Assembly: GCF_048403405.1 (NCBI RefSeq)
Contig: NZ_CP183129.1
DNA: 64,000 nt
Source: Escherichia coli
Lineage (GTDB): Bacteria; Pseudomonadota; Gammaproteobacteria; Enterobacterales; Enterobacteriaceae
Strand: one strand, 5' to 3'
Part shown: positions 15,001-18,000 of the stretch, one piece after another
How positions within the stretch are numbered: position 1 is the stretch's first letter
Layout: every line of letters starts with the position of its first letter
Position numbers: made by a program

Positions 15001-18000
15001 ACTTTTGATATAAATAAAGACTTTAATATTAGATTCTTTTCTAAATCAGGATAAATAAAGTGTTGTTCTCTATTAATGTTATTACAAATGTTTTTTATTA
15101 TATTCTCCCAACCAATAACATTCCGAAGATCTTTATCCAGCAACTGTAAGGCCACATATTGTTCTACAAAGCGGCCTTTTAAAGGTATTCGTGGTAATAT
15201 TACACCTTTCTGCTTATAAACTCTTTCTATCGTATTATCTGGATATTGGATCTTCCTTATTTCTATTCCGTCTTCTTCTGATACCCTTACTAATGGTTCA
15301 TTTTTTAACTTTGACATGTTAACCCTCTTAAATAAAAAACTAACTTTATCCAGATAGTGTCCGTTAAGAAGTTTTCGTTACAACTAAGTTTCTAGGTAAA
15401 TCATGAATCAACCTATAGTATCAAAAACATTTGGTGGTAAACATCTGCATTTATCAAATAGCAGGAGCGATTTAGGGGCATAGGGATAGTGATGATATCT
15501 ATACCCGTGCCCTCTTATGTCAACACAATGGCGTAAACTTAACGCTCACATCTCGCTCAAAGTGTGCTAGGAGATTTGGTTATGTTCAGGTGATACAAAC
15601 CGTCAGTTTGAATCAGAGATAGTACAATTAACAATCGATTCAACCCTCTTCCACCATGCCAGGTAAGCTTTACGCTGTTCTTCTAGATAATCGCTCTTAT
15701 CATAAACTTGCCATACCCCTGGCAGCTTATGACCAAGCATAATTTCTGCGATATGAGGCGCAGTAAGATCAGAAAAATTTGTTCGTGCTGTCCGTCTCAA
15801 GTCATGAAGAGACCAATGAGGGAATTGATATCCTAAACGCCGCCACGCGTACTGCATTAAATTGTAAGGCAGCGACTGTAATGATGTCCTACCGACTGGC
15901 TCCCTGCTTCCTTCCTTAGTAAAAAGCATATCGGAACCGTTGTTCATAGAGATAACGTATTTTATAAGCTCTTCAACCGGTTCAATAATGGGCCGCTTTA
16001 GCGGTTCGCCTGTTATGTCCCCTGTCTTATGTCGTTCAGGTGGTACAGTCCATACCTTATTTATGAAATCAAAATCACCCACCCTAGCAGTAATTAGCTC
16101 CGAACTACGGCAACCAAAATGCAGTAATAGTTTAATGAAGGCCCTGTATTTGGGAACCATTCTAGAGCCATCGATCGCAGCATAAAGAATTTTAATTTCA
16201 TCGTGTGTCAGAAACCGTTTCTTCTGACCTTTACGGATATCCATATCTTTACCCGTGATATCCGACAGCGGGCGAGTTTCAATAAGCTTTCTCTTATACG
16301 CCCAGACATGGGCCTGCTTTGCGTTAATTAGCAATCGGTCTGCTATTGCTGGAGTCTTAGTGCTAAGAGGCTCCAGGACTTCTAACCAATCATGCAATGT
16401 AGCTGCATCGTGAGGGATATTCCCGATTTTAGAGAACAGGTGCAGCTCAAACGAGCGGAGTATCTGTTCAGAACTCTTTTTATTTTTTACACAATATGCT
16501 TCATACCAGGCACGGATCACAGACTCTACCGTCATGGCTTCAGTAGCTTTTCGTTTTTCAGCCTGCTTGACCAATCGTGGATTACGGTTTGACTCGAGTT
16601 CACCACGGAGACGGATAACTTCTTCTCTGGCCTCTTTTAATCCAGTTGCCGGGTAAGTTCCGATATCAAGACGCTCACCTTTCCCTGCCCATTGATAACG
16701 ATATTGGAACACTACGCGACCTTTCGGTGATACTCTGACAGACAGACCATCACGATCGGATTTAACCAAAACCTTATCACGTTCCTTTCCAACGACTGAA
16801 CGCAACCACGCATCAGACAGCGCCATTACTCACCTTGTACAAATCGCAAAACACCTCTGCTGCTTTGTACATTATGTACAAGCATATGTACAGATTTTTG
16901 ATGAAAGCAACCTGATCGATTTAAAGTTACATGAAAGAATTTTCAATTAAAGAAGCCACATAACCATATGTATTTAAATGAGTTATATAACCAGACCTCA
17001 ATTAACTGAAAGGATTTTGAAAGAGTAAAAGAGCTTTAATTTGGGATTAATTATTGGGGTGAGAAATAATGGCAAAAGTGCGGCGCTTCGCCACCTCTTG
17101 CAAATAAGGAGACAACGTCATAATTCTTTCTTCTTGAGTAAGCGGCATCGCGCCGCGCTTGTTGAAAACGAAAAATTGCGGCTATTTTACCCATCAACGG
17201 GGGGAGGCAATCAGTGTTTACACAGGAGCTGCTCCAGTTCGTGCAACGAAGAAACGGTCCAGGTGGGCGCGATGCCTTCTGGTTGCTCGCGATTGTGCGC
17301 ATTCAGCCAGCAGGTCGCAAGCCCGGCGTTGATGCCACCGAGAATATCGGACTCGGCAGTGTCGCCAACCATCAGCACGCGTGAACGGTCAGGATTGCCC
17401 GCCTGTTCCAGCGCATAATCGAAAATTTTCTTATTCGGTTTGGCAACGCCAACTTCTTCGGAAATCACCAGCAAATCGAAATAATCACGCAGGCCCGTGC
17501 GTTCCAGACGCACTTGCTGCAAGGCGCTAAAGCCGTTGGTGATGATGCCAATTTTAGCGTTGCCACGAATGGCGTTAAGCAGAGAAACCGCGCCCGGCAG
17601 CGGCGTACAGATTTCCGCCATCGCATTAATAAAGGCTTCGTTGAGTTTACCCGGCTCGACGTTCAGCCGTTCGGCCCAGCTCTCAAACCGCCCGTGCTGA
17701 AGCTGTAATGAAGTGATCGCGCCGTTTTGATAATCCACCCACAGTGGCTTGTTAACGGCCTGATAGTCCTGAAAATCTTCAGCGGTAAAGGTGACGCTGT
17801 AATCAAGAAACATCCGCTGCAGGCCGGTGAATGAGTCAAAGGTAAACAGCGTTTCATCGGCATCAAAGAAAATCCAGTCCCACTTCATTATTCCACCTTG
17901 TCTTACATACTGATTGGCAACGCCATGATGATGGCGTCTTCGCGACCGTCCGTGGTGGGGTAGTAATTGCGGCGAATTGTCGCCTCGTTAAAGCCTAAAC

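Follow-up and report, generated by a model that had tools for sequence, protein, structure and literature searches.

TGTACA repeats beside the integrase gene of a prfC-inserted Escherichia coli prophage as probable arm-type sites of the integrase

Which protein reads the four TGTACA hexamers that stand within about 57 bp between the integrase gene (int) and the attachment junction of a lambdoid prophage in Escherichia coli? The prophage lies in a stretch of 64,000 nucleotides of contig NZ_CP183129.1 (assembly GCF_048403405.1), hereafter called the window, and is inserted in the 5' end of prfC. The initial annotation of the window had offered two readings of the hexamers, namely arm-type sites of the integrase or a means of repressor-controlled int expression. 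We found that the hexamers have a defined place in the anatomy of the attachment site, occur on both of its arms, are conserved, keep a constant distance to the attachment core and are independent of the immunity type of the phage. The first of the two readings is strongly supported, as the repeats on both arms, the fixed core distances and the Arm-DNA-bind_3 domain of the integrase all speak for it, and the second is not supported. Judging from the sequence comparisons set out below, we consider it highly probable that the hexamers are the arm-type binding sites of the prophage's heterobivalent tyrosine integrase (Int).

The TGTACA cluster and the prfC junction

The four hexamers were found where the initial annotation had placed them (Table 1), and they include the arrangement TTGTACA-TTA-TGTACAA (TTGTACA-N3-TGTACAA) at 16865-16881. 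The cluster lies 10-66 bp upstream of the int ATG, within the phage arm between int and a 14-bp core, host DNA beginning at 17057; its described location between int and the attachment junction is therefore correct. TGTACA occurs nine times in the window and 10.9 copies are expected overall from shuffled sequences, so the hexamer is not enriched across the window and is enriched at the cluster alone, which holds four of the nine copies. A density no different from that of chance in AT-rich phage DNA had been raised as a possibility, and an accidental cluster of this kind gains some support from simulation, since some hexamer, whichever it may be, occurred at least four times in 57 bp in 2/60 order-1 Markov simulations of the whole window and in 4/60 simulations with AT-rich phage composition (3-7% of simulated 64-kb sequences). 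For TGTACA itself, however, the rate-based estimate for four copies in 57 bp is ~6e-7, a second and independent cluster is present on the other arm, and nine diverged arms conserve the sites (see below). Chance is refuted by these comparative data, and we assign it a negligible probability.

The gene beside the cluster encodes a protein 97.8% identical to the Int of phage cdtI. Per Pfam, it contains an Arm-DNA-bind_3 domain (residues 3-90, E=5e-16) together with Phage_int_M and Phage_integrase domains, and its N-terminus matches the solved arm-type binding domains PDB 3jtz (residues 1-80) and 3ju0 (residues 1-96). The int-proximal arm is unconserved among homologues except for the TGTACA sites.

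The insertion in the 5' end of prfC is evident from prophage-free genomes and from the translations of the displaced native stub and of its replacement. For ~4,700 E. coli genomes that lack the element, the match with the window is confined to positions from 17057 onward, in the yjjG-prfC region, and the whole junction is carried by 699 of 5426 complete E. coli genomes (~13%). The core, of which the window holds one copy, codes for Ile-Ile-Ser-His-Pro of prfC, and the 14-bp duplication annotated in Stx-phage records (LC727876) corresponds to window positions 17057-17070. Beside the core stand the inverted hexamers ATTATT (17050-55) and AATAAT (17065-70), which may be the core-type Int sites. 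The native prfC stub still lies behind the native yjjG-prfC upstream region and is directed at the arm and int. The other prophage end carries a phage-encoded, diverged replacement prfC 5' end (L002 1555-1615; L003 2858-2925), the promoter of which must lie among the TGTACA sites of the distal arm.

Table 1. Predicted arm-type sites and associated features, in coordinates of the window.
Feature	Coordinates	Strand	Description
Arm-type site 1 (predicted)	16884..16893	-	int-sense cTGTACAtat; hexamer 16887-16892; 66 bp upstream of int ATG, 164 bp from core end
Arm-type site 2 (predicted)	16872..16881	-	int-sense tTGTACAtaa; hexamer 16875-16880
Arm-type site 3 (predicted)	16865..16874	+	plus-strand tTGTACAtta; hexamer 16866-16871
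Arm-type site 4 (predicted)	16835..16844	+	plus-strand tTGTACAaat; hexamer 16836-16841; 15 bp upstream of int ATG
int	15603..16826	-	407-aa tyrosine integrase, phrog_1
int-proximal arm	16827..17056	-	phage DNA from int ATG to core, 230 bp, AT-rich
att core	17057..17070		14-bp phage/host identity; plus strand GGGTGAGAAATAAT; int-sense ATTATTTCTCACCC
Displaced native prfC 5' stub	17047..17121	-	22 codons + NN*, translated
xis	14127..14321	+	64 aa, excisionase family, pL-direction strand

Both arms of attP and the distance to the core

The free phages 2H10, cdtI and Ayreon, which are 95-99% identical over the int-arm query, have an intact attP, and each attP contains eight TGTACA hexamers, four on each side of the core. 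LC727876 likewise has four and four, distributed over its two prophage ends. The int-proximal sites lie at +177 to +228 from the core start (164, 176, 185 and 215 bp from the core end) and the distal-arm sites at -184, -115, -87 and -75, which is ~300-430 bp from the int ATG. A 22-bp module, TGTACATATG(C/A)TTGTACATAAT, is also present on both attP arms of these three phages in the same orientation. The window starts only after the other junction and so shows the int-proximal set alone. Phage 2H10 has a terminator-like hairpin (L003 3105-3126, minus strand) which, read in the int-sense direction, immediately precedes the distal arm and would there insulate attP from incoming transcription.

To what extent the sites are conserved can be read from relatives at increasing distance. 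A scan of viral contigs retrieved 80 loci, all at least 97% identical and hence too close to be of footprinting use beyond the invariance of the hexamers. Within E. coli, 21 distinct arm variants leave the four hexamers unchanged, site 1 included, and vary in the intervening spacers. Int homologues from Salmonella (84% identical), Pantoea (83%), Xenorhabdus (65%) and Serratia (61%), and more distant ones from Erwinia (55%), Pseudomonas (52%), Vibrio (52%) and Shewanella (51%), are without exception found at the same prfC core, ATTATYTCNCACCC. When nine arms of 200-230 bp were aligned with MAFFT, the only conserved blocks were the core, a pair of sites spaced 12 bp apart and the site proximal to int, the pair reading TGTACAt-N5-yGTACAtaa and the proximal block (t/a)TGTACA(a/c)(a/g)gtg. 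Sites 1 and 2 are the first and second units of this direct pair; 8/9 divergent homologues keep site 1, with a core distance of 163/164 or 132 bp, and site 2 is the best conserved of the sites (yGTACAtaa). Site 3, which is inverted with respect to site 2 and makes up the TTGTACA-N3-TGTACAA arrangement with it, is limited to E. coli, Salmonella and Pantoea, and Xenorhabdus and Shewanella have a different third copy. The proximal site, of which site 4 is the representative here, is present in 9/9 homologues, where its core distance is 213-215 or 181-183 bp, and is found in Acinetobacter and Burkholderiales homologues as well. The oriented consensus of the TGTACA sites is yTTGTACATAw.

Measured from the core end, the sites of the nine elements fall into two distance classes, one with 163/164, 175/176 and 213-215 bp and the other with 132, 144 and 181-183 bp. 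The classes are 31-32 bp apart at every site, and because this difference amounts to ~3 helical turns, the helical phase is preserved. The distance from site to ATG is more variable than the distance from site to core, for example in Serratia and Vibrio. The fixed distance to the core argues that the primary constraint on the sites is the geometry of recombination.

These distances also bear on the proposal that the repeats are promoter or 5' untranslated region (5'-UTR) elements of int, or sites of a host transcription factor acting on it, with no role in recombination. In favour of it, no site of the cluster is more than 66 bp from the int ATG, and a -10-like CATAAT (16871-16876, minus strand) is found in site 2. 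However, the motif occurs four more times on the distal arm, at the distances from the ATG given above, and the spacing to the core is better conserved than the spacing to the ATG. Moreover, the repeat switches to TGGACA in the Gifsy-1 clade, in the same host family, which would be unexpected for a host factor. We consider this proposal very unlikely.

Two observations were made on the homologous loci themselves. In several of them (L099, L101 and L103) the proximal site, ATGTACAC, adds a further ATG (MYT...), in frame and 21 nt upstream of the conserved MALSD start, which could mislead gene callers. A 97%-identical copy of the integrase is carried by DYWT01000186.1 (L098), a 3.2-kb contig labelled as a Sporosarcina psychrophila metagenome-assembled genome, and this contig is probably mis-binned.

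Among still more distant relatives the motif tracks the integrase, as it is kept alongside unrelated immunity regions and in other genera and becomes TGGACA in the Gifsy-1 clade. Integrases ~46% identical to Int that insert at the 5' end of lepA (those of Gifsy-1, SPN3UB, Kluyvera, Citrobacter and Edwardsiella) have the same layout with TGGACA(C) as the repeat instead of TGTACA, and a strand of the arm domain reads LWVRISKKGAVTFFYRF in the Gifsy-1/SPN3UB clade versus SVRVSPKGRVVFQYRY in the TGTACA clade. Acinetobacter phage ABMM1 (Int 45% identical) has three TGTACA hexamers within 70 bp of the ATG and two more ~290 bp upstream, the Moraxella Mcat phages (Int 41%) have two copies of GTGTACATAATT directly before the int start, and Burkholderiales homologues (~52%) have GTGTACA repeats. 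The strand SVR(V/I)(S/T)PKGK is common to the Ints of ABMM1, the Moraxella Mcat phages and the Burkholderiales.

The Gifsy-1/SPN3UB clade was also observed to carry a replacement 5' end of its target gene, MKNIRNFSIIAHID (SPN3UB L091 1240-1300; L092; Gifsy-1 L095 1-25), and the N-terminus encoded at this target is one that we take to be LepA. The lepA target codons (...SIIAHID...) are homologous to the prfC core codons (...AIISHP...), and the related integrases thus appear to target one GTPase-motif region of paralogous translation factors.

Repressor and excisionase as alternative readers

The immunity region of the prophage comprises cI (9895-10569, plus strand), a divergent cro and pL near 10600. 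The initial annotation had described its operators as using (A/T)TGTACC half-sites, and this is literally right: ATGTACC occurs at 9810 and 10615, and TTGTACC/GGTACAA at 9860-9878. What these half-sites have in common with the int-proximal sites, however, is the pentamer TGTAC only. An operator consensus built from the immunity region is a 19-bp dyad with a 5-bp spacer, ATGTAYC-N5-GRTACAT, and a scan with it returned scores of 13 (9810), 12 (9843), 12 (9860), 14 (10615) and 13 (10635) out of 14. The scan also yielded two operators absent from the earlier list, a third right operator (OR) at 9843-9861 (ATGAACCTTCAAGATACTT) and a second left operator (OL) at 10635-10653 (ATGTATCCAAAAGAAACAT), which brings the set to three OR and two OL dyads.

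Could the TGTACA cluster then consist of auxiliary operators of cI (or Cro) that place int under immunity control through the TGTAC core of their half-sites? The operators at 9810, 9843, 9860, 10615 and 10635 have (A/T)TGTAYC half-sites, and both ATGTACA and TTGTACA agree with 6/7 positions of such a half-site. The geometry of the cluster is nevertheless wrong. The operators have their GTAC cores 11 bp apart and the cluster has them 30, 9 and 12 bp apart, no TGTACA pair fits the operator arrangement, and the best score of the cluster at operator spacing is 8/14, equal to background, versus 12-14 for the true operators. In addition, PhiR63_1, Stx1a_JNE122398, Stx2c_EH0430 and Stx2c_JNE082796 combine the same int and the full set of four hexamers with unrelated immunity regions, their repressors being either different or not detectable within 12 kb; the operators of PhiR63_1 are of the TTGCGYRA type. 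The motif is also kept in Acinetobacter, Moraxella, Vibrio, Pseudomonas and Shewanella, and the distal arm has another four sites at a great distance from any int promoter. Due to the background score at the correct spacing and the dissociation from immunity type, we dropped repressor operators as an explanation, which we deem slightly less probable again than that of promoter or host-factor elements. The same dissociation makes the shared TGTAC pentamer best regarded as a coincidence. A LexA box (CTGT-N8-ACAG) over sites 1-2 was also considered and gave no fit by eye, its second half reading TTGT.

Another candidate reader of the repeats is the excisionase (Xis), the recombination directionality factor (RDF) of the element. 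RDF sites are short repeats within att arms, and Xis homologues accompany Int in the enterobacterial relatives and occur in the same 33 phage records as Int. Sites of this kind typically form phased direct repeats on a single arm, close to the core and on the core side of the arm-type sites; for Gifsy-1, Flanigan and Gardner (2007) reportedly found Xis to bind a 31-bp stretch with three direct repeats spaced by 10 bp. The Gifsy-1 RDF sites have been described as 'tripartite direct imperfect repeats' (PMC2603039). The TGTACA sites do not conform to this pattern, as they occur on both arms and at the outer arm ends, and their orientation is mixed and their spacing uneven (12, 9 and 30 bp). Furthermore, the identity of Xis falls from 86% to 42% and then to an undetectable level across divergent loci, while TGTACA stays constant, and no Xis homologue was detectable by tblastn in the TGTACA-bearing Acinetobacter and Moraxella phage records. 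We therefore regard Xis as an unlikely reader of the sites, although a less improbable one than the repressor or a host factor.

Int itself has an N-terminal arm-binding domain, and the motif found on both attP arms is unlike the core and is constrained in its distance to it, as is characteristic of arm-type sites. The Arm-DNA-bind_3 domain of Int would bind the TGTACA sites, and its central and catalytic domains would bind the core within prfC codons 17-22. Int would in this way bridge arms and core in an attP intasome with four int-proximal (164-215 bp) and four distal sites (~70-185 bp), which would serve both integration and excision, the prophage junction in the window keeping the int-proximal set only. 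In all likelihood, on the strength of this comparative evidence, Int does bind the TGTACA sites.

We would like to note several points that weigh against this assignment. The eight sites exceed the five of lambda, and the consensus of integration host factor (IHF), WATCAANNNNTTR, had no match in either arm with at most one mismatch allowed. A sigma-70 consensus scan of the int strand, both of the arm and of intact attP, likewise gave no match, so the int promoter could not be placed and its overlap with the sites is putative. Xis co-evolves with Int across the clade, and for this reason covariation of the motif cannot by itself separate Int from Xis as its reader. Lastly, searches of open-access text found no publication describing arm-type sites of the prfC-targeting integrase cluster and nothing specific on TGTACA arm sites, Gifsy-1 Int sites or SXT arm-type sites.

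Transcription of int and comparison with known systems

The position of the predicted sites suggests a second function. Since they lie within 66 bp of the ATG, one adjoining the Shine-Dalgarno sequence (site 4; int-sense aGGTGAG, 16829-16835) and one containing the -10-like CATAAT (site 2), occupancy by Int would probably repress int. Taking the analysis as a whole, we see the chances that Int represses its own gene as evenly balanced. The CATAAT in site 2 is a putative promoter element. Transcription of int could start at a promoter embedded in the arm, or it could read through from the native prfC promoter, and site 4 would fall in the int 5'-UTR. Read-through from prfC into int is possible because the native prfC upstream region faces int and no terminator-like site was detected between them (16600-17300). 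Int bound at the sites might, speculatively, act as a roadblock to such read-through.

The layout of the module resembles one already described. In KplE1 and P4, the integrase promoter overlaps attL and is repressed by Int plus the RDF, KplE1 being the arrangement in which Int autorepression was demonstrated (PMC2951348). Here, too, int stands beside the junction, with its ATG 230 bp from the core, and it reads away from the core. The xis gene is on the opposite strand, and as int is thus opposite to both xis and pL, the two genes are transcriptionally uncoupled. The direction of int, away from the core, and its uncoupling from xis make the module a match for the paradigm of KplE1 IntS and P4 Int.

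A broader proposal would join these strands: the arm sites may double as a transcriptional switch that responds to the state of integration, with a single-base change of specificity dividing the prfC and lepA branches. We find this combination rather doubtful, albeit less so than any of the alternative readers above. In the free phage, int would be preceded by the replacement prfC 5' end and by a promoter among the distal TGTACA sites, and integration would instead place the native prfC promoter and stub upstream of it. In that position, nothing but Int at the four proximal sites would hold back host-driven int expression, and Int at the distal sites could tune prfC expression in the lysogen. 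The change from TGTACA to TGGACA would separate the prfC- and lepA-targeting branches of one integrase clade, which would hit homologous GTPase-motif codons.

The arm-type sites proposed here can be compared with several known systems. Like lambda Int with its sites P1, P2 and P'1-P'3, the integrase is a heterobivalent tyrosine integrase with a separate N-terminal arm-binding domain, and a short motif distinct from the core is found on both arms, in mixed orientation and at fixed core distances. Unlike in lambda, the motif is of the TGTACA type, the arm-binding domain belongs to the Arm-DNA-bind_3/DUF4102 fold family, and there are eight copies versus five; furthermore, int points away from the core and the 5' region of the gene overlaps the arm sites, whereas lambda int runs toward attP from pL and pI. 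The resemblance to KplE1 (CPS-53) IntS/TorI and to P4 Int extends to an int gene beside the junction and reading away from it, sites in the 5' region, and perhaps the promoter, of int, a xis gene uncoupled from int and an integrase of the DUF4102 family. The element differs from these in its insertion at the 5' end of prfC, as opposed to tRNA genes, and in the native host promoter (that of prfC) that also faces int in the lysogen; autoregulation has been shown in those systems, whereas here the promoter and the repression are proposed from the layout.

With the cdtI and SXT/R391 cluster, the element shares the prfC 5' end insertion, the replacement 5' end and the combination of a DUF4102 arm-binding domain with a tyrosine recombinase catalytic domain. 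The Int of cdtI and SXT have been placed in a prfC-targeting 'SXT cluster' of the DUF4102-bearing IntSXT subgroup (PMC8138268). Gifsy-1 and SPN3UB are similar in that the 5' end of a gene is replaced and two or three repeats lie 20-75 bp upstream of the int ATG, with more across the core; they differ in the repeat (TGGACA(C) versus TGTACA), the target (lepA versus prfC) and the arm-domain beta-strand. The sites share the TGTAC pentamer with the half-sites of the prophage's own SfV-type cI/Cro operators. Unlike the sites, those operators are 19-bp dyads with a 5-bp spacer in which position 7 of the half-site is C; they stand at pR/pRM and pL and assort independently of the int module.

Arm-type sites belong to textbook knowledge, so no concept is changed by these results. 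What the results do provide is the arm-site consensus yTTGTACATAw and a map of predicted sites for the prfC-targeting integrase cluster, which includes Stx- and Cdt-converting phages and, according to the published classification, the SXT/R391 resistance elements (PMC8138268). The map could help to define a minimal attP for engineering, and it could help to explain low int expression in lysogens with int behind a host promoter.

Some minor features of the window were also noted. The int-proximal arm contains a 20-nt direct repeat, TTAMMTGAAAGRATTTTSAA, at 16927-16946 and 17002-17021, the copies being 75 bp apart, and the CTTTCA core of this repeat (int-sense) recurs in a similar place in the arms of Salmonella, Pantoea and Xenorhabdus; the repeat is a candidate site for Xis or a bending protein. 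Some ~3 kb from the junction stand three tandem tRNA-Leu(CAG) genes (20064-20385), which this integrase does not use. A hexamer cluster as dense as that of TGTACA occurs just once more in the window, in the form of four (GAC)TGGTTC copies in 47 bp (7531-7577), within an open reading frame at 7132-7989 on the minus strand, and these copies resemble lambdoid origin iterons.

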